A stretch of DNA of 40,015 bases. Origin: a phage. The stretch's first letter is position 1. Each line of letters starts with the position of its first letter. The stretch lies in sequence record PV889368.1; one strand, 5' to 3'. The position numbers were made by a program, and so were the translations under genes. The notes under the pieces were generated by a model, which worked only from the letters and a program-made list of their open reading frames with translations, was not told the origin of the DNA and searched no databases. Below are positions 1 to 40,015 of the stretch, piece by piece.

Positions 1-1483
1 GGCCTAATCCGACGCTTCCAAAATACTTGTTTCTAATAACCTTGATAGTACCAGCATGACTATAACGACAGTCAAAGCCACCCCCGCTTGCACCAGAGTT
101 CTCTACGTTAGCATACAGTAGGTTATTGTAGTCACCGGAGAATTGGAAACCGCTGTACTCCTGCCCGTTGGAACTAGGATCGCCTAACGCTAAACCTAGA
201 GCCATTACGGAGTAGTTAGTCTTATTAGCCATAATACCTTCCCGACCCCAATTCTCAATTCGGTCAGCGATGAATTGCGAGTAGTGGCATTCATGGAAGA
301 ACAGGGCACCCGCAGATTCAGTACGGAACCCATCGGGGGACAGTACAGGCGTATAGGTACGGCTGAAGTAGTTACTGTGCGCGTACTTAACGTATACATT
401 CACTTTCGGGCATTGTATTAAATACAATAAGTGCGTACCTACGTTAGCGCCGGACTGGCCAGCCTTATTACCGTCCACTTCATTAATATACACCTGAAGA
501 CCCCGCGTGTTGTTGTACGCATACAGGGCCCGGTCAAAGTCAACGCAACCATCTGGTAAGCTCATCTTGCCATAGATGAATACTTCTTTTGCATTAGATA
601 AATTAATATTCTTGGCTACCAAATTAAATCCGGCAGGCACAATTAAAGTCCCTGTTTCATCAACCATAGCCTGAGCAGCAGCAGAAGATTCTACCCCATT
701 TACTGCACCCCAATCTGCAACAGTAGGCTGCTCTTCATTTTTATCATGCTGAGTACGTGGTACCGCGCTATAAGATGACAGTCTTACACCAACTATCCTA
801 TCTCCTAACATTTCGTCTTGAGTTGATGACAGATCTGAACGCAACGATGCGTCGCCAACACTAACCCACGCGCCTAACCCAATGCCACCAGACGTTTCAG
901 GTGTTGAACCAGCAGGAACGTTCTTTGGAAGAGTACCATCCCAGCGGTAATACTCACCATCCTCTTCCCATAGCAGTACCTCGTTCAATTTTGTAACGTT
1001 GAAGCCTTTTTCAAAGGATCGACGGGTCATATAGCCAAGTTTACTGGCTGCCTTGATATTCTCAGCGATTCGTCGTGCTTCGTCCTCACTATCCTTAGCG
1101 TTGCTAGCATAGCTACCAGCAGCATCGGAATATTCCTTCGCTAAGTCAACAGTTTGGTCTCGACCTTCTTCTGCAATATGGATAGCCTGAAGCTCTGCAT
1201 TTGTCAGGTCACTAGCTGTCAACACTGAGCCATTCCTGAAGTCTACCACTAAGTCAGTTCCAGTCTGACGGTGAATACGAACGATGTCGAAACCTGATTG
1301 GTCAACCAACATCTCAATCTTCGTTGGATCAAGGAATCGGTAATCTCTACCAGCTTCCAGTACCCGGTTCAGGGCAGGGTTAGAGCTATTCACCAGCGTA
1401 ACAACAACAAACGTTCTGGCTAGGTAGTCGAACTCAATCCTGTACTGAGTGTTTCCTGAAGGGAATTGTGTAATCGTGGACAT
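1..1483 (-). CDS. Tail fiber/tailspike gp17, 5' portion (N-terminal ~494 aa). The ORF runs off the window start and continues at 39888..39320 through the end overlap, about 683 aa in total
   Basis: ATG at 1483..1481 preceded by AAGGAGG; N-terminus [30 protein letters not shown] resembles the T7 gp17 N-terminal adaptor domain; no stop before the window edge; the frame continues exactly into the 39320..39862 ORF. Confidence 0.85.
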
Positions 1484-1552: not shown

Positions 1553-4500
1553 CCTTGATGTGGATACCTTGCTCCTCAAACGTTCCAAGTAATAGCTTCT
1601 GGGTAATTGGGTCGTTCGGAACCAGTTCACGGAACGTATTATACATCCCGGTCATGTAGTCACGCTCGTTGACACGAGTATCAGCCTTGAGGTAGCCAGC
1701 CAAGTTGTAAGCCGAAGCACCAACGTTAGCAGCATATCCGAAAGCTGGAACCTGCTCCAAGAAGTTACCAACAACATTCATCACAGGGTCGCTTGTAGCT
1801 GCACCATACGCGATGGCACGTTCAGTCTTCTCTGTAGGTGAACGAGGTAGTATAGACGAACGGAGCATCTTAGTGTCCTCATACCCAGCGATGCCACCCA
1901 GAATGTTAGCGACCCCAAGTGGGCCACCCAGATGTGAACTACGGGACAGGGCAGCATACCCAATCATCGTCGGGTTTAGAGCTTGCTTGAGGTAGTCACG
2001 GTCTCGACCATCCTGCATAGCGTAAGCCTTGACGTGCGCCTGAGCCATGTAGTAGATACCAGCTAGACCCATAGACATCACAGTGGACAGAGCAGCGTCC
2101 ATCGCTCGGTTGTTCTTCGTGGCGTTATAGAAGGTTCGCATGGTTCGCCCATTGATGGACTTGATGACGAAGTTCTTAAACTGAAGGACAGTCTTAGCGA
2201 GAGGGCCGTAAGCCTTGGCATCCATGTTAGACAGCTTATAAGGTCGTAGTAACGTTTCATCAGCGATGGTGTCACCCATACGCCACAGGTCCATAGCCCT
2301 TGGGTCCTGACTGAACGCCTTCTTATCCTTGATGGTGTACTTACCGTCTGGACCACGAGTCACTGACTCACGGATTAGGGACTTAATTCCCTTCCACTGC
2401 TCGTCAGAGATACCAGCGGTCTTCAGCCATCGGTCATCGAACTTACGCTTACTACCAGTCAGACTATGCTCCACGATGTCAGACAGGAATCCCTGACGTC
2501 CAGCATCTAACAGGTAGTTGGTCGTACCGTTGAGGACTTTAGTGAACGGAGAGCGTACTGCAAGTTCACCAGTGTAATACTTGGCAGTCCCCAGAGCTGT
2601 AGCCGTACCACGACCGAGGTCACTGTAAGACCGCAGACGGTCGATGACATCCTGTTTAGACGGACGGATTGAGTCATCAAGTTCCTTACCGAAGAGAACA
2701 TTGTGAAGGTCCTTAATCTCTGAGGCGCCTACCTTCTTGTTACGGAAGGCTAGGTCACGGAACATCGGGACTCCATGAAGCAGCGCACGAACGTTACCAC
2801 GAGCCAGCATACCACCAATCTCCGTTAAGTTCTGAACACCCATGTAGGCATTCTTAGCGAAGAACGATAGGTCTGTCATTGTGCGCATCACGGTAGCGAA
2901 GGCTGCATCATCAGCACCATCACGTCGAGCACGACCAGTGAGAATCTTCAAGGTGTCACGTAAGGTAGATACTTCACCTTTCAACTTACCGTCATCCCCA
3001 GCCTTGTTCATCATGGTCTCAACCAAGTCCTTCATGTCCTTCGTGGTTTTGCCTGTACCAGCCATGATAGCAATATCGCCATTAACTCGACGGTTGTAGG
3101 CCGGGACAATCTTGTCCATGTCCCACTCACGAAGGTTGTTGACACTGAAGGTCTGACCGTTAGGCAGGACGATTGACATGTCACTATCGAATAGGTTACG
3201 AGCCTCAAGGAAGCTGTTGTTCTCCAGACCAACCAGACCGTTGATATTCTCTTCCATTACGGATGAGCGTTCGAACTTCTCGGTGTGAGAGATACCGTAA
3301 GCCTTATCGTTGGCGTACTTATCGACCGCAGCCGCAAGTCCTTCTGGAGTCAACGTAGGGTCAGCCTCTGAGAGTGCCTCGTCCACACGTTTCTTGACTT
3401 CAGGTCGAGACGCATAGCTTGTCAACCATGACTTCTTGATGGCCTCCTGCAACGCCTCTGGACTCCCAAGCTCCTTGATATACAGCTCCTTCATCTGTTT
3501 GCTATACACATGAGGGACGTAGGTCCCCTTGAATCGGCTACCCGGAAAGATAGACTTAGCGTCTGGGCGACCAAACATAGCTGGGTTCTCCATCATCTCA
3601 CGCTTGGCGTCAAACTGGTTCTTCAGCAGGTCATAGACTTTCAGTTCTCCCGGAGTCAGTTCAGCCTTAAGGTTTCCGCTACCATCTTCGATAGCCATAG
3701 ACACACGCTGGTAGATGTCCTGACGGAATGCTCCGGAGTCTCGCCAGAATGCTGTCTGGAAGTACGGGTCCTTTAGTGCCTCAGTAACCGCATCGTCGAT
3801 GTCATTGTAGAACCGATGGTCCACTGCACGAAGTCGCTCGAACACGTCTGACGCTGTAGTCCCAATCTTCCCGCTCGCACCTGACTGCATACCTGTGGGG
3901 GAACGCACCAAGTCAGCGGCAAGTCCGCGAATCTCAGGGTTCTCAGACCTCAAGAGCTTCAAGCCAATCTCGGTAAGTCCACCAAGGTTTACACCAGCAG
4001 CAGCACGTTCAGGCTCAATCACCTCGTCGAAGACTTGGCGTGTCTTAGGGTTTAGTGGGTTCTCGCCAATCAGGATTGAACCATCTTCCAGTCGTACACT
4101 ACCCGGCTCATTCGGAACTTCAGCGAACTTAACACCTTGATGACTAAATGTCTGCTCACCTTCCTGAATAGGGAGACGAGACAGGTCCTGACCATCAACG
4201 TTACGAGCGGTCTCACGAGCTTCCAGACGTGTAGCTGGGCCAGCGAACTCATTAGAGTTGCGGCCTAAGGCTCTGCCTAATCCATCAGCGATAGCAGTCA
4301 TACCTGCACCGAATAGAGCACCACCAAGGATAGCTTCAGCCACATGAGCATCACCACCAGCCACTGAGGTACGGGCAACCTCAGACACACCAGATAGTGC
4401 TCCAGCTTGGGCAGCCACTGTGAACATCTTGTTGACCAGTTTACCGCCTTTACCCACCTGTCCAGCGATAGGAACGTAGGTCAGTGGGTCCACGCCAGCA

Positions 4501-8805: not shown

Positions 8806-8828
8806 AGTCCCTATAGTGATAGTTAAGG
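8806..8828 (-). promoter_or_regulatory. Phage RNAP promoter (phi13-like)
   Basis: Minus strand CTTAACTATCACTATAGGGACTATAGG. Confidence 0.8.
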
Positions 8829-8852: not shown

Positions 8853-11210
8853 TTAGACGGAACGAGCTTTCTTAGCGTATGACGCCTCCCAGCCACACCC
8901 AACGATGGACACTGGGGTAGGATAGTCTGACTCTAAGGTTAGACTCGTGGTTAATGCGTTACCATTCATAGCGAAGCGATACTGACCATCCCCAATGTTG
9001 GTAGTCCCGATGGTTTGCTGACCAAGGGTGTACCCGTTGAAGGTATTCACGAACTCCCGCTCACCGTTTCTGACAATGAGTCTCAGAGCGCCAGTGTCCC
9101 TGTAGTTGACCCAAGCCCGACGAAGCTGTAGACGACCAGTGTCTTCAGACTGAGTGCCACTATCATCTTCAATCTTAATCAGGAACCGTGAGAACTTGTA
9201 GGACATCAGATAGGACCGTCCGATGAACACTGTATGTCCTGACCAATCGCCGTTGAGGGTAATCACAGTAGAGATACTGGTCAAGTCCCCAAGGTCCACA
9301 TAAGCACCCTGACTGTCAATCAGATAGTACCGACCGGGAGACGGAGCGTTGCCACCATAAGCAGAACCAATGTCAACCGTAGTCTTATAGGTGTCAACGT
9401 TGTATGAGCCAATTGGTATTACCATAGACACCTTGGAGTCAACGTGGAGTCTATACGGCTCTAATGGAAAGTCAGTTGCCTCCTTGATGAACTTAAGGTG
9501 CTCAAGGTCCACTCCGCCTTGGTGCTGACGAACAATGAACATGGTAGAGCCAATCGACGCAGACGCCAGAATCTTATCAGCTTTAGGGAACTCCCAGTGC
9601 GACCAAGAGGCTTGAAGCTGTACGCCGTCCTTAAACAAGAACTTGTAGATGTAGATTCGGTTGTATGCACCTGTAGAGTTGACGCAGATGTAGTTCTCAG
9701 TTCCTGTACCTTGAATGTCAAAAACCCCGTTAGGAATATAGGACAGTACGTGGCCAGTGGTATCATCAGCATCCTTCACATCAGACACATCCGCTACAGC
9801 GAAGTATCGCTTAATGCTGGTGAATGATCCACGAGGCGCTGAGAAGAAGACTGAGCGTCCTACAGCGAATGGTCTGGCATTATCGCCTAAGGCAAACTCT
9901 GAGCCTACATCAAGCTGGATAGACTTCGAGGTAAGGACCCCAGAGCTTGTCATTACGAACTGAACCTCATCCGACCAAAGTAGTAGCTGCTCGCTAAACG
10001 GAACGGCATACTTAAGGATTGAGATTCTAGGGTGACTTACAGCTACATCAATAGGGTCATCATCACTCAGTGTCGCCACACTCTTAGGGAAGAACGCAAA
10101 GTAGCTGGCTGAACGGCTCATGATTACATTCTCACCAGACAAGAACCCAAGTCTGTTCCTGTAGAAGAACACATCATTAATCGCAGCATCCACGAAGCTA
10201 GGCATAGGGTTTGTGTCATCGTTACCAGCACCACGCTTGGACCAATCCAGAGTCTTGAACTCAAAGGAGCCATCAGACTGTCTTACCAGAGCATGTGGCA
10301 TTGTGGTTACATCGAACCCAGTGACAACTCCCGGCTCCACTGTCTCCTTCCACGTCTTAGTGTTGGAGTCATACATCACGTAGTATTCATCGGCGCTACT
10401 GTTTGTCTCACCTTGAATCTTAATGATATACCCATTAGGAGCTGCAAGAGGTAGCTTAGAGATTGTCTGCACAGTGTCTAGGACTGGGCTTATTAGCTGG
10501 TTAGCGTACCCATCCTCCGTCTCCACTGAGTTAATGTCGGTCCCTGAAGGAGCTGTGATTAGCAGGAAGCCAGACCCAAGGTCAAACGTGAAGGTCGGAT
10601 AGGAAGCAACAAGAAGGTCTCTCAGAGCTGCACCAATGGCTTGAGCGTCCACCTTAGGTGGGTCATTCTCGGCATCATTACCTGCTGGTAGCTTATGCAC
10701 GACCTTAACGCCACCGTTGATTCCCACCTTAAGGGTTCGACCATACTGTCCACCACGCAGGTTAATTAAAGCTCGTGATTTGCGGTTATAACCAGAGTGT
10801 GACTTCTCGCTTCCACCTTTGACGACAACCTTACGGTTAACGACGAACGTATAGTCTGCCACGGTAACGACACGGATGTCATCTCGTGGGTTGGAGGACT
10901 TAACGTAATCTACCGAACCTGACACTGAGTATTGATTGCCACTCAAGTCAACTACCTGAACGTTGGACCCGTTGAACACGATGTAATACTGCTCATGCTC
11001 GTCACGGTTAATCAGGTGGAACTTAGGGTTGCTCCCAACGTCGATGTTAAGACGTCGCTTGAAGACTGTAGGTGGGCGCTTCTGGAGGCCATCACTCTCG
11101 GATGACCAGCAGTTAACCTGTGCCTCGCCTTGGTCTGAGAACCTCAGTATATCAGGCTGCTGGCTAATGCCACCTTTAAGATTTTTTATGCTTTGCGTGA
11201 TAAGCGGCAT
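8853..11210 (-). CDS. Tail tubular protein B (gp12)
   Basis: N-terminus MPLITQSIKNLKGGISQQPDILRF matches T7 gp12 MALISQSIKNLKGGISQQPDILRY; also GRLQLRRAWVNY and IVGCGWE near the C-terminus. Confidence 0.93.
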   Translation of the reverse strand: MPLITQSIKNLKGGISQQPDILRFSDQGEAQVNCWSSESDGLQKRPPTVFKRRLNIDVGSNPKFHLINRDEHEQYYIVFNGSNVQVVDLSGNQYSVSGSVDYVKSSNPRDDIRVVTVADYTFVVNRKVVVKGGSEKSHSGYNRKSRALINLRGGQYGRTLKVGINGGVKVVHKLPAGNDAENDPPKVDAQAIGAALRDLLVASYPTFTFDLGSGFLLITAPSGTDINSVETEDGYANQLISPVLDTVQTISKLPLAAPNGYIIKIQGETNSSADEYYVMYDSNTKTWKETVEPGVVTGFDVTTMPHALVRQSDGSFEFKTLDWSKRGAGNDDTNPMPSFVDAAINDVFFYRNRLGFLSGENVIMSRSASYFAFFPKSVATLSDDDPIDVAVSHPRISILKYAVPFSEQLLLWSDEVQFVMTSSGVLTSKSIQLDVGSEFALGDNARPFAVGRSVFFSAPRGSFTSIKRYFAVADVSDVKDADDTTGHVLSYIPNGVFDIQGTGTENYICVNSTGAYNRIYIYKFLFKDGVQLQASWSHWEFPKADKILASASIGSTMFIVRQHQGGVDLEHLKFIKEATDFPLEPYRLHVDSKVSMVIPIGSYNVDTYKTTVDIGSAYGGNAPSPGRYYLIDSQGAYVDLGDLTSISTVITLNGDWSGHTVFIGRSYLMSYKFSRFLIKIEDDSGTQSEDTGRLQLRRAWVNYRDTGALRLIVRNGEREFVNTFNGYTLGQQTIGTTNIGDGQYRFAMNGNALTTSLTLESDYPTPVSIVGCGWEASYAKKARSV

Positions 11211-11219
11211 GTGCCCTCC

Positions 11220-11447
11220 TTAAATCATACTCATTAGGACGTATCCTTCAGCGATGTCACCAACGTCAGCAATGTGGACAACCTTACGAGCTACCTGCTG
11301 CCCCGTATACCCGTTGTCCCACTCATTCAGGATAAGCCAGTCGCCAACCTTAAAGTCCCGGTCGTTAAGTCTCAGCTCTGCTGTCTTTAGACCTAGCTGT
11401 ACCGGACCAAAGTGCTGGCGGTGAATCTTCAGGTTGTGACTAGCCAT
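11220..11447 (-). CDS. Small ASCH/PUA-like (DUF3850-like) protein, 75 aa, with no T7 counterpart
   Basis: ATG overlapping the gp11 stop (TAATG) with GGGAGG RBS; pattern HxLKIxxxxFxxVxxGxKTxExRxNDRDFxVGD...GYTG is typical of short ASCH-like proteins (recalled, not searched). Confidence 0.55.
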   Translation of the reverse strand: MASHNLKIHRQHFGPVQLGLKTAELRLNDRDFKVGDWLILNEWDNGYTGQQVARKVVHIADVGDIAEGYVLMSMI

Positions 11448-12013
11448 TAGTCCCTCCCGATGTCAGACATCATGTTGTAGCGACCAGTGTCCATCTCGTA
11501 CTCCATAACCTGCTGATAGAGTTCTGCTTCCTGCTCACGAAGGTATAGCTCTGACTCTGGGCTGCCGAAGAACTTAGCGTTGAACTCACGGCTAGCTTTA
11601 GTGACGATGTAGTCCCTGAAGACCACAGGCATCTCGGAGAATGGCTTCATCTCCACAAGCTCTACCGTGATAGGGTCGGTGAAAGTGGTTGACTGGGTGG
11701 ACAGGTCGTACAGGTATCCCCCCATGTTGCTGTAGTAGCTGGTGGCCCCAGCGGTCATTACACGAAGGTATGACGGCAAGAATCGAATCCTGTTGTCTTG
11801 GATATCGGGTGTCAGTACAGCAGCTTCGTTGATGTTAAAGTTCCAGCCTTTAGCTTGGACCTGACGATTGACACGATGCAGGATACGTTGAGCATTCGAG
11901 ACGTCAGCATTGCCTTCGTCAAGCTGTAGGACTGCTGGTTCACCGATAGCAGCTAACATATCGTTGATGGCATCTAAGTCATCGTTAGCATTCAGTGGAA
12001 TGTATTGAGCCAT
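11447..12013 (-). CDS. Tail tubular protein A (gp11)
   Basis: Start moved to ATG 12013..12011 (GGAGGA RBS); AINDMLAAIGEP, GWNFNI, IVTKASREFNAKFFG and MEYEMD match T7 gp11. Confidence 0.9.
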   Translation of the reverse strand: MAQYIPLNANDDLDAINDMLAAIGEPAVLQLDEGNADVSNAQRILHRVNRQVQAKGWNFNINEAAVLTPDIQDNRIRFLPSYLRVMTAGATSYYSNMGGYLYDLSTQSTTFTDPITVELVEMKPFSEMPVVFRDYIVTKASREFNAKFFGSPESELYLREQEAELYQQVMEYEMDTGRYNMMSDIGRD

Positions 12014-12026
12014 AATTAATCCTCCG

Positions 12027-12068
12027 AAAAAAAACCCCTCAAGCACCCGAAGGCACCCAAGGGGTTTC
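12027..12068 (-). terminator. Tphi-like terminator for the phage RNAP downstream of the capsid gene
   Basis: Minus strand AACCCCTTGGGTGCC-TTCG-GGTGCTTGAGGGGTT hairpin followed by TTTTTTTT, closely resembling the T7 Tphi sequence. Confidence 0.8.
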
Positions 12069-13245: not shown

Positions 13246-13357
13246 ATGATAATTCTCCTATTCAATTGAAAGATAAAGTTTATTACTTACTGTACGCCCA
13301 ATCCGTATGGACTGAAGTAATAGGGAAACCTTGAGTCTTTCTCTTGGTCTCCCTATA

Positions 13358-13380
13358 GTGATAGTTTAGTCCTACAGGCT
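13358..13380 (-). promoter_or_regulatory. Phage RNAP promoter (phi10-like)
   Basis: Minus strand CTAAACTATCACTATAGGGAGACC upstream of the capsid gene. Confidence 0.85.
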
Positions 13381-19135: not shown

Positions 19136-19291
19136 TTAATGACATTCTTTCCACGTGGGTCCAATCTTACCCTCAGTATCAAGAACACATTTAAAGTTAT
19201 AGAACTCACCCACCTTACGCATAGCAAGTTGAGCAATCTTGACGACTTCTTCGGCAATCTCCTGAGTACGACACGCAATTTGTAACTCATC
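19136..19291 (-). CDS. DNA polymerase gp5, exon 2 (C-terminal 51 aa)
   Basis: Translates to DELQIACRTQEIAEEVVKIAQLAMRKVGEFYNFKCVLDTEGKIGPTWKECH, matching the T7 DNAP C-terminus DEIQVGCRTEEIAQ...NFRCLLDTEGKMGPNWAICH; in frame with exon 1 once the intron is removed. Confidence 0.8.
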   Translation of the reverse strand, partial: DELQIACRTQEIAEEVVKIAQLAMRKVGEFYNFKCVLDTEGKIGPTWKECH

Positions 19292-19641
19292 CTTTCTGTA
19301 TTCTCCCATTACTGGAAGTGTCGGACTATATCATCAGTCTTTGAGGTGACTGTCTGGCGCTTCGGGTTACGTGGGAATCTCACCCACGGCCCTACTCCTT
19401 TCGGATAGTCTCTACGCCTTCCACTCTCTAATCCACCCACAGGCGGCTGAGAACGCCACATTGAATATTTCGGAAGTATCCATCCTGATTCAATTTATGT
19501 GACGTAGGGATTATGCAGCCAGTCTCAGTGGCCTCAAGAATTAACTTCTTGCCTCTCATACATCCTCCCTATGGCTTGGCTCGGTATTGTCCCATTAGGA
19601 GTTCACCGAGTTCACCAGATTTAATGTGCACCATGATGTTA
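19292..19641 (-). ncRNA. Candidate ORF-less group I intron (350 nt) interrupting the DNA polymerase gene
   Basis: Exon 1 ends in U (..GUGCAU); the intron contains GUGCAC able to pair with it including a terminal U-G wobble (P1); the last intron base is G; R-like GUAGAGACUAUCC and S-like GAUAUAGUCC elements occur in that order ~30 nt from the 3' end; no ORF inside. Confidence 0.7.
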
Positions 19642-21657
19642 ATGCACCCATGCCATGTACGCAAAGTCACCTTCCCAGCCGTGAACATACCCTGCCTCTT
19701 CGAGCATACGTTCAGTCTCCACAATCCAGTGCTTACAGACTACCGCACCATCACCTTGAAGTAAGGCGTTCAGTGCTGAGTGTGGAGACCGGATGTGGAT
19801 ACGGCGACCATCAAGTCCACGCAACCAACGGCGCTTCCACTTGACGATATTCTCACCGTCCACCCACTTAGAGTCCGAGATTAACGTATTACTCACAGCT
19901 TCCCTGAGGTCCTTGATGGCTGGTGTACCCTCAATGAATTTCTTCATGAGAGCTGAACCTTCCTTCTTACCACCTCCTACTATCAGTCCAATCTTAGCGG
20001 CCCCTGCACCATACAGGAACGCATAGATGAACGTCTTAGCGTTGTTACGGAAAGCCTCATGGTCGTGGTTAGACTTATCGCGTGGGACGTTAGGTGCTAA
20101 CCCAGCGTTTACTGCGTTGGCCCAGTGGATGTCACCTTCGACCACAGTCTTCGCATAGTCACCACCATCAAACGGAGCCGCTCGGTTCCCCAGACAACGA
20201 AGCTCAAGACCTGAGGCATCCACACCCACTTGAATCCAAGGGTCTGGCTTACCATCCGTCTTGTTCCAAGCTGCACCGAAAGCACCACGGCAAGTCTCAC
20301 CATATGGAGCACCGTTAGCCGGGACCTGAGCCATGTTTGGTGCGCTATGAGTCGCACGTCCGGTTACTGCCCCGCATGGGTTGATTGAACCGTGCATACG
20401 TCCGTCTGGACCTACAAGTTTCAACCATGCGTTCTTACCTTCAGCCGCCTGACCGATTCGCTTCTGTACTACCAGATACTCACGGACCAGCTCTACGCAA
20501 GCCTGAGCCTCTGCGTCTGGTAGCTTAACGTGTTCTAACGTCTCGTCATCGACTACAGGTTTCCCGGTGTCAGTGAAGTCAACAGGCTCCCAGCCACGCT
20601 CCATCAAGACTTTTGCCAAGTGGTCTCCGCTTCCCGGATTAAACTCAACGTAAATGATTGGCGTGAATGGTGCTCCCTCCATCGTGTCTCGCGTATCGAG
20701 TTCACAAGGTTCAAGACCTAAGCGTTGAGCTTTGTTCTTCGGCTTCTTAAATATGCCACCGACCTTAGGATACACGACTCGCGGATACTTCGGAAGGTCC
20801 TTACCTGTCCGTGGATGCCTGAAGAACTCCTTGCCACCCTTCGGTGCGTACCAGCTACCGAAAGTCGAACGCAGCTTGTCAAGCAACTCCGCACGCTTGA
20901 CGGTGAGTTCACGATATAAGCCTTCGACCATCTCGGTGTTCATCGGATAGCCATTACGTTCCATCTTCGCACAGGTCCACGCAGCATCATGTTCCAGACG
21001 CAACGCATAAATCTGGTCGAAAGCGAACTGTTCAGACTGGAAGTAATACTTGTCAGTCAGGAACTTCTTGAACAACGCCAGTGTGACCACAACGTCTTGA
21101 ACGTTATAGTCCAGCATCTCCTGAGACGGGAACAACCATTCGTCCCCAGCCTTATATTCGATACCTTCAGCCTTGCACTTGGCAATGTAATCGTGTTTGT
21201 ACTCACCTTTCATCTCACCGAGACGATAACCCCAAGCCTCAAGAGATTGACGTCCCATCATATTAGGTGGCAGACGACCAGCTTTCACCGCGCCCATGTC
21301 GGAGAACTTAATGTTTGGATACATCAAGCGGCCCAGCACCAAGGTATCAATCATCTTGTGTTTCGGGAAGTTAAAGCGTTTCCCAAAGTACAGACGCTTC
21401 AGCTTGTCAATAGCCGGGACGTCGTAGTTGATACCGTTGTGGAATACCAGCATACCATCAGGTGATGCGGCAATCTCTTCCACCTTCTGCACATACTCTT
21501 TGAAGCCCCCGACGATACCGACCATCGGAGCTACCCCATACTTAAGGGTCTCATTCGACTCGGCGTTAATCAGGACCCCACAGTGGAACTGGGATACTGT
21601 ATCAAGGAGACCGTTTGTCTCGATGTCAGAACCCCAGATACTCTTAAGGTCAAACAT
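19642..21657 (-). CDS. DNA polymerase gp5, exon 1 (672 aa)
   Basis: Start moved to ATG 21657 (GGAGGA RBS); GSDIETNGLL, FHNG..YDVPA, EAWGYRLGEMKGEYK, GRATHSAPNMAQVP, GLELRCL, NAKTFIYAFLYGAG and GDFAYMAWVH match T7 gp5; TAA follows WVH where T7 continues. Confidence 0.92.
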
Positions 21658-21679
21658 GGTTAATCCTCCGTTTAGTCTA

Positions 21680-21720
21680 ATCATAAAGGCCACTCGATGT
21701 GAATGACCTTGAGTCTAGAC
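21680..21720 (-). promoter_or_regulatory. Conserved late intergenic element, copy 1 (candidate RNase III site, R4.7-like position)
   Basis: Plus strand aatcataaaggccac-N-gaatgaccttgagtcta; near-identical copies at 28685..28727 and 38668..38715. Confidence 0.4.
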
Positions 21721-39319: not shown

Positions 39320-40015
39320 TTAAACCACCATATACCTAAAACTAGCCCCCGACCCAGCAGGAGAACCAGAAGCTGTAGCTATAGTACAAGAGCCGTTATT
39401 AACTGCTGATACGTAGGCATTTGCCAATGCCCCATTTGCATTAGCGGGTACAAGGATTATATGTGACCAAACATTTATGTTTGCGTCCACTATATTTGCC
39501 GTGGAGTTTCCGGCTAAGCCATTGAAGCCGCGCATATGGAGTGGTTTTTCGGGGTCCAATTGGACGTTTCTAAGTATGAACTTTCCTGTCCCTACGGCGT
39601 TTAGCCTGGTCTTGTTGTTGGCGTTGCTTGTTAAGTCGCCATTCGTTAGCGTTAACGTAGAGTTAAAAGCTGTTACGTGGGCGGAGCCGGGGTCTTTAAC
39701 TATGAAGTTGTCAACACTATTGTTATCAGCGCCGTCTGATTGGTTTATGCCTACACCCGCTGGATTTATTACGGTTGCCGATAGTACACGGTTGTTATTG
39801 CTGTTGGCTGCGAACTGGAAACCGTTAGCAGCGGAGTTAATGCTAATGATACAATCAATCACATTGTACTCGGAAGGTGAACTAGGACGGCCTAATCCGA
39901 CGCTTCCAAAATACTTGTTTCTAATAACCTTGATAGTACCAGCATGACTATAACGACAGTCAAAGCCACCCCCGCTTGCACCAGAGTTCTCTACGTTAGC
40001 ATACAGTAGGTTATT
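39320..40015 (-). CDS. Tail fiber/tailspike gp17, 3' portion (C-terminal Asn/Gly/Ser/Ala/Val-rich beta-helix-like domain); 39889..40015 duplicates 1..127
   Basis: Same frame as the ORF leaving the window at position 1; composition and repeated N.V.N / N-G-S patterns suggest a right-handed beta-helix tailspike domain (inference); stop at 39322..39320. Confidence 0.8.
   Translation of the reverse strand, partial: NNLLYANVENSGASGGGFDCRYSHAGTIKVIRNKYFGSVGLGRPSSPSEYNVIDCIISINSAANGFQFAANSNNNRVLSATVINPAGVGINQSDGADNNSVDNFIVKDPGSAHVTAFNSTLTLTNGDLTSNANNKTRLNAVGTGKFILRNVQLDPEKPLHMRGFNGLAGNSTANIVDANINVWSHIILVPANANGALANAYVSAVNNGSCTIATASGSPAGSGASFRYMVV
39889..40015. repeat. 127-bp exact duplicate of positions 1..127 (circular-assembly overlap, not a biological terminal repeat)
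   Basis: The text at 39889..40015 is identical to 1..127 and lies inside the gp17 coding sequence. Confidence 0.9.

Follow-up and report, generated by a model that had tools for sequence, protein, structure and literature searches.

The window analysed here comprises an entire phage genome (40,015 bp), presented in reverse orientation with every large ORF on the minus strand. Exact direct terminal repeats of 127 bp at both ends (1..127 and 39889..40015) identify it as the whole linear genome; they are shorter than the 179-190 bp given for K1F and SH3-5 (PMC4925675). Megablast placed the genome in Kayfunavirus, among the K1F-like members of the Studiervirinae, and 222 GenBank phage records match the 1.4-kb region around a 75-aa ORF, the best full-length matches being ~97% identical. 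The features at this locus, in the direction of transcription, are:

13352..13368, minus strand: phage-RNA-polymerase promoter, the nearest upstream and the equivalent of phi10, called by its match to TAAACTATCACTATAGG
12027..12068, minus strand: Tphi-like intrinsic terminator with a hairpin (12068-12031) and U-tract, from a terminator scan (RNA fold -25.2 kcal/mol, z -3.6)
11447..12013, minus strand: gp11, tail tubular protein A/adaptor, 188 aa (phrog_446, E 2.9e-67; relatives' annotation)
11450..11458, minus strand: Shine-Dalgarno sequence (SD) GGGAGGGAC of the 75-aa ORF, within the last Gly-Arg-Asp codons of gp11, from carrier comparison
11445..11449, minus strand: TAATG overlap, in which the final A of the gp11 TAA is also the A of the ATG of the 75-aa ORF, read from the sequence
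11220..11447, minus strand: stand-alone DUF3850/ASCH-fold coding sequence, 75 codons from an ATG, then a TAA stop (11222-11220)
11211..11219, minus strand: SD and spacer of gp12, GGAGGGCAC, directly after the stop codon of the 75-aa ORF
8853..11210, minus strand: gp12, tail tubular protein B/nozzle, 785 aa (phrog_457, E 4.3e-281)
8810..8826, minus strand: phage promoter, the next downstream and the equivalent of phi13, ending the unit of gp11, the 75-aa ORF and gp12

Upstream gp11 and downstream gp12 belong to the same transcription unit as the 75-aa ORF. An earlier note had singled out an ORF at 11220..11447; these coordinates are exact, and the strand, which the note left unstated, is minus. 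It had also set the ORF between tail tubular genes 11 and 12 at a point where T7 has nothing. This is confirmed by the PHROG matches of both flanks and by the T7 spacer, in which merely 23 non-coding nucleotides separate the two genes that here enclose the 75-aa ORF.

That the ORF is a real DUF3850/ASCH gene is virtually certain, and purifying selection acts on it. In pairwise comparison with 12 orthologues, dN/dS ranges from 0 to 0.2; an 85%-identical allele gives a dS of 1.1 and a dN of 0.11, and alleles of only 68% identity give a pN of 0.19 against a pS of 0.75. Variable alignment columns number 11, 11 and 42 at codon positions 1, 2 and 3, respectively. Third-position substitutions in the minus-strand frame, together with the Pfam match in that frame, ruled out a chance ORF, and the same two observations led us to reject the antisense ORFs at 11254..11424 and 11274..11390 (both plus strand). 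Recent horizontal acquisition was rejected, as the GC content (0.50) and synonymous codon usage of the ORF are indistinguishable from those of the remaining genome and its alleles have diverged as much as those of gp12. A transposon-like or homing insertion was also rejected: the junctions are without repeats or target duplication, and an HNH gene lies alongside in some genomes only. An RNA element was considered as well, and a gathering-level Rfam scan of the entire window returned nothing in the region of the 75-aa ORF.

Elsewhere in the genome, a group I intron region (19136..19651, minus strand) splits the DNA polymerase gene. The Rfam group I intron RF00028 matches at 19302..19651 (minus strand) over the full model, with 54.7 bits against a gathering score of 50 (E 2.5e-11). 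Exon 1 (19639..21693) ends in ...AYMAWVH, and the C-terminus of the polymerase, DELQIACRTQEIAEEVV...GPTWKECH-stop, resumes in the ORF at 19136..19309. Introns at this conserved polymerase motif have already been described in some T7-like phages.

The 75-aa protein consists of one domain, a minimal ASCH/PUA-like beta-barrel that belongs to the DUF3850 subfamily. The earlier note had read it as a short ASCH/PUA-like protein and had named a DUF3850/ASCH profile search as one check; both Pfam families are matched above cut-off, and profile, solved-structure match and predicted fold agree on this identity. DUF3850 (PF12961) aligns residues 4-73 with positions 2-76 of a 77-position profile (E 1.9e-19; 70.1 bits against a cut-off of 22.9), ASCH (PF04266, PUA-like clan) scores 26.2 bits against a gathering score of 21.2 (E 1.4e-5) and PHROG 986 is matched at E 2.8e-35, with no match in an NCBIfam search. 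An AlphaFold model made with 75 homologues as input (pLDDT 95.4) has the same fold as the solved DUF3850 member 3IUW, a beta-barrel with a helix after strand 1 that is superposable on characterised ASCH proteins, and all strong structural matches are ASCH/PUA proteins. The sole solved relative by sequence is this same PDB entry, 3IUW, a structural-genomics entry for an 83-aa 'activating signal cointegrator' (NP_814290) of Enterococcus faecalis that is assigned to Pfam DUF3850. It is bacterial or prophage-borne, not from a T7-like phage, and its function is likewise unassigned, so it anchors the fold and not the mechanism. The 75-aa protein has a pI of 6.4, the family median being 5.8.

Signals around the gene make late, gp11-coupled expression probable, on the strength of sequence features and analogy with T7. 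The promoter core TAAACTATCACTATAGG has 11 matches in the genome, every one on the minus strand (0.05 would be expected by chance), and no phage promoter lies between 12013 and 8853. A sigma-70 promoter belonging to the 75-aa ORF itself was rejected, the scan being at chance level (5 found, 5.8 expected). The Tphi-like terminator lies between the capsid gene and gp11, the equivalent of the place where the T7 annotation has Tphi, and from this position it follows that gp11, the 75-aa ORF and gp12 can be reached only by read-through transcription, as in T7. Because no phage promoter separates this hairpin from the end of gp12, the promoterless ORF would be transcribed late by phage RNA polymerase, together with gp11 and gp12, on a read-through transcript from phi10/phi9.

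A TAATG stop/start overlap is a classic arrangement for translational coupling, and each of the 18 distinct carrier loci examined has this same junction. In all 18, the final Gly-Arg codons of gp11 read GGG AG(G/A), giving GGGAGG five bases upstream of the ATG of the 75-aa ORF. Ribosomes ending gp11 would thus initiate the 75-aa ORF through TAATG, using an SD embedded in gp11 codons. Ten of 12 non-carriers instead have GGT CGA or AGC CGA as gp11 Gly-Arg codons and a separate intergenic SD, TAGGAGGTGATATG, for gp12. The two exceptions, K1F and the locus L083, have kept GGGAG(G/A) with gp12 fused onto TAATG, the gp12 ATG being placed exactly at the position of the ATG of the 75-aa ORF. The carrier-type GGGAG(G/A)GAC TAATG junction, here serving gp12, lies at 1890..1990 of K1F (L115, NC_007456) and at 3520..3620 of L083; from its sequence it looks like a precise secondary ATG-to-ATG deletion between two similar SD-ATG motifs.

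Carriage of the gene varies within the K1F-like clade. K1F is without the 75-aa ORF, and its gp11 and gp12 are 99.5% and 97.5% identical to those of the window. The ORF is also missing from L083 and from ten IMG/VR relatives (L092, L095, L096, L099-L104 and L106), and tables in PMC4925675 have Citrobacter phages SH3-5 and Cronobacter phage Dev2 without it. In GenBank, the ORF is found at ≥80% identity in 155 phage records and gp11 at ≥80% identity in about 218; judged by sequence, with divergent alleles included, about 70-80% of K1F-like GenBank genomes appear to carry the gene at the gp11/gp12 site. Allele identities at this site range from 100% down to 85%, 68%, 61% and 45%. Nucleotide identity to L109 is 94% in gp11, drops to 69% exactly at the start of the ORF and is ~70% in gp12, a step from which we infer that the ORF lies on the gp12 side of a mosaic junction and moves with it, and that it has long been resident and was lost several times. 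The 45%-identical allele (L105, 3567..3785; IMG/VR 2700988881) keeps the first five codons, K21, R26, G35-D36 and E42, has an E24D change and has SIPE instead of N28-D29-R30; its function may have shifted, or the variant may be decaying. Akin to this allele is a 44%-identical protein in Citrobacter phage CR44b (BFVD W6PP16).

Virion proteomics has been published for the non-carriers SH3 and SH4 (PMC4925675), and that of carrier B1 consists of eight gel bands, among which even gp11 and gp12 were missed (PMC12785254). Because K1F and others build near-identical tails without the gene, its product is best regarded as not a tail part, and the gene is very probably non-structural and dispensable. 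By genome comparison, it is unnecessary for tail building and behaves as a gain/loss module.

The gp11/gp12 junction is a recurrent insertion site, since phages yong1 and B1 carry a second gene there. In Hafnia phage vB_HpaA_yong1 (L002, MK610268; 1986..2426, minus strand), the interval from the DUF3850 gene to gp12 holds a gene annotated as an HNH endonuclease (146 aa); in phage B1 it holds ORF41, which encodes a hypothetical protein of 158 aa (PMC12785254). HNH homing endonucleases in the T7-family structural cluster use the same junction and show the same presence/absence behaviour as the 75-aa gene; unlike them, the 75-aa protein is without a nuclease domain, and its gene is under purifying selection and integrated into the translation signals of the operon. 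This T7-family cluster often has small accessory genes or homing endonucleases squeezed into it, and for that reason the finding of the 75-aa gene, correct and tidy, would surprise a T7 specialist only mildly. Some relatives have an extra annotated 40-aa ORF in the interval from the Tphi terminator to gp11, as in phage Penshu1 (L001, 2880..3002, minus strand), which explains length differences of 100-185 bp in several two-piece BLAST matches.

DUF3850 is widespread beyond this clade. Profile searching gave 4,406 DUF3850 proteins, mostly stand-alone and of 75-95 aa, tblastn found the domain in 561 GenBank phage records and structural matches in BFVD reach a TM-score of 0.97. Other phages with the domain (PHROG 986) include T1-like, Kagunavirus, P2-like, P22-like, Listeria, Enterococcus and Gordonia phages, and there are also ParB-CTPase-DUF3850 prophage proteins. 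The genes most often annotated beside it in 49 non-redundant viral loci encode helicases, primases, P2 gpA-type nickases, HNH proteins, endonuclease VII and regulators; a P22-like phage has its homologue between NinB and NinG. DUF3850 genes of other phages are thus located in early, replication or nin modules, many of them with extensions or fusions, whereas only the K1F-like clade has the bare domain between two tail genes, with predicted gp11 coupling. The earlier note had found an ASCH-like protein in the tail module unexpected: a tail address is indeed atypical for the DUF3850 family, but within K1F-like genomes the arrangement is common. Several longer DUF3850 proteins (among L018, L019, L020, L025, L032, L063, L079 and L071) have C-terminal extensions of 70-190 aa with no Pfam match. 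Of the extensions in ten longer homologues, nine hold no further Pfam domain and one a DnaA_C HTH; in L071 (3533..4231), an N-terminal DnaA C-terminal HTH domain (E 1e-10) is joined to DUF3850.

The sequence of the 75-aa protein contains the octapeptide G19-L-K21-T-A-E24-L-R26, followed by N28-D29-R30. It fits the ASCH motif GxKxx[E/T/S]xR, which is defined as an octapeptide between helix 1 and strand 2 (bioRxiv 10.64898/2026.02.27.708502). In an alignment of 75 DUF3850 sequences, K21, R26, D29, G35, D36, E42 and G49 are present in every sequence, H4, K7, E24, N28 and R30 in 74 and G19 in 69. Aligned with Escherichia coli YqfB by hhalign (89.9% probability; the sequence alignment spans residues 8-47 only), this family places K21/E24/R26 on YqfB K21/T24/R26, and a HMMER alignment does likewise. 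Each of the three YqfB residues is essential for hydrolysis of N4-acetylcytidine (ac4C), K21A, T24A and R26A being inactive (PMC6972931). The phage protein has the 'GKER' variant of the motif (K21/E24/R26), as do EOLA1 and TthASCH; in the 'GKER' proteins TthASCH, EOLA1 and TRIP4, removal of ac4C from tRNA needs the Lys-Glu dyad (bioRxiv 10.64898/2026.02.27.708502), and EOLA1 relies on K21/E24/R26 (bioRxiv 10.64898/2026.08.01.741249). All 19 ASCH proteins assayed in vitro deacetylated E. coli tRNA, in a set without DUF3850 or phage members (bioRxiv 10.64898/2026.02.27.708502).

The phage protein also differs from these enzymes. The ac4C amidohydrolases YqfB, EOLA1 and TthASCH have 103-160 aa against 75 aa here, YqfB being longer by 28 residues, and the C-terminal elements with YqfB His70, Glu74 and Tyr89 have no demonstrable counterpart by sequence, the alignment extending to residue 47. 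Conserved Y12/F13 and Y69 are candidate counterparts of these residues or of TthASCH Tyr14/Tyr81. Conversely, H4, K7, N28-D29-R30, D36 and E42 are invariant extras of DUF3850 that the ac4C amidohydrolases do not share, and the 75-aa protein, unlike those enzymes, comes from a virulent phage with predicted late expression.

The invariant residues of the 75-aa protein form a dense polar and charged set with no obvious aromatic cage, and together with the acidic-to-neutral pI this favours a small pocket enzyme. A pocket of K21, E24 and R26 with the DUF3850-specific H4, K7, N28-D29-R30, D36 and E42 would hold a free or flipped-out cytosine-type base bearing an N4-acyl or similar group. Such a pocket would most likely hydrolyse that acyl group, the chemistry of YqfB, EOLA1 and TthASCH on nucleosides and tRNA. 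From the motif and the analogy with these enzymes, we tentatively propose that the protein is a catalytic N-acyl-base hydrolase rather than a mere binder, a best guess that we hold to be less likely than not and only slightly ahead of binding alone. For the whole explanation, a non-structural accessory gene with late gp11-coupled expression and an ASCH pocket that likely performs N-acyl hydrolysis, we put the chances at about even.

Several observations run counter to the catalytic reading or its tRNA substrate. ZmASCH is reported to be an ssRNA nuclease, the ASCH domain of TRIP4 contributes DNA binding and some GKER proteins act weakly. DUF3850 fusions to ParB-CTPase and to the DnaA C-terminal HTH point to DNA instead of tRNA, and the benefit to a lytic phage of removing ac4C late in infection is not evident. 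The divergent L105 allele, which keeps K, D and R but is without the NDR motif, also weighs against this reading. In the literature mentioning DUF3850, we found no functional test of any DUF3850 protein.

The main rival to the hydrolase is a non-catalytic reader or binder of RNA, ssDNA or a modified base, comparable to PUA, EVE, YTH and TRIP4-ASCH domains, which might influence how phage nucleic acid is translated, replicated or packaged, or tie up a nucleic acid of the host, without any chemistry. The wider PUA-like clan behaves as binders, and the DNA contacts of TRIP4 and the DUF3850 fusions just described are in keeping with such a role. Methyl-base readers typically have an aromatic cage, however, whereas the invariant positions here (H4, K7, K21, E24, R26, N28, D29, R30, D36 and E42) are densely polar or charged; the acidic-to-neutral character of protein and family is ill suited to backbone binding, and the exact catalytic triad of ASCH deacetylases is retained. 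The 'RNA-binding' label carried by some database entries is homology transfer only. On balance we hold a pure binder to be rather unlikely, and keep binding alone as the fallback.

Less probable again, and compatible with either catalysis or binding, is a counter-defence or host-range factor whose pocket erases or mops up an acyl mark or small molecule of a host immunity or toxin system, with GNAT-type acetyltransferase toxins and GNAT-EVE-ASCH modules as possible targets. ASCH genes are near-constant in GNAT-EVE operons (PMC7641849), ASCH homologues occur in restriction-modification operons with tRNA-cleaving endoRNases and ParB-DUF3850 fusions are enriched in prophages, where an anti-defence role has been suggested. 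The presence/absence polymorphism among phages with gp11 ≥97% identical, with alleles 45-100% identical, is typical of accessory host-interaction genes, and a counter-defence factor would account for it. Yet PADLOC-DB gave no significant match (best, PDC-M07B, E 0.0073, 14.4 bits over 34 residues), the protein matches no known anti-defence family and the dN/dS values speak for ordinary purifying selection, without any trace of an arms race. Anti-defence genes of the T7 family are normally early, whereas this gene is predicted to be late, and we judge the reading improbable.

A tail-related role, with the protein encoded at its place of use and serving as a minor part of the virion or as a chaperone in the assembly of the gp11 dodecamer and the gp12 hexamer, is very improbable indeed: K1F, L083, SH3-5, Dev2 and others make tails without the protein from gp11 and gp12 that are 97-99% identical, structural matches to hub proteins have only 7-14% identity, indicating a generic barrel, and siphoviruses, myoviruses, P2-like and lambdoid phages have their homologues in replication or nin regions instead of tail modules.

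Carried to its furthest, the hydrolase proposal would make the protein of this virulent phage the smallest known nucleic-acid or nucleoside 'eraser', a minimal late ASCH amidohydrolase stripping N4-acetyl or other N-acyl groups from host tRNA, RNA, DNA or nucleotides, an idea that we consider speculative and unlikely. If true, its purpose would be retuned decoding and salvage, or the undoing of an acylation-based host toxin or defence (GNAT-type), which would explain gain and loss among otherwise identical phages.

Neither as a sequence nor as a member of its family is the 75-aa gene new. Proteins 100% identical to its product are in GenBank, some annotated 'DUF3850 domain containing protein' or 'RNA-binding protein', and phage B1 has the same 75-aa ORF, entered as hypothetical (PMC12785254). 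The 'RNA-binding' name is an inherited annotation label and not a result; the protein is slightly acidic, the known fusions of the family are DNA-related and recent ASCH biochemistry points to an amidohydrolase pocket. In our literature search, no paper paired Kayfunavirus and 'RNA-binding protein', and none paired ASCH and 'tail tubular protein'.

The DUF3850 family, large in phages and prophages, is without an assigned function, and this locus offers a clean natural experiment: T7-type phages that are nearly identical and easy to engineer either have the bare domain or lack it precisely, and its gene lies in a defined operon that is predicted to be late. If the pocket is not catalytic, the value would be smaller and practical: the 'RNA-binding protein' label spread by annotation pipelines is without basis in data, and the gene is very probably not a tail component despite its address. 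If the K-E-R pocket is catalytic, ASCH ac4C-eraser chemistry would be extended to viruses and a minimal enzyme of 75 residues would be defined.
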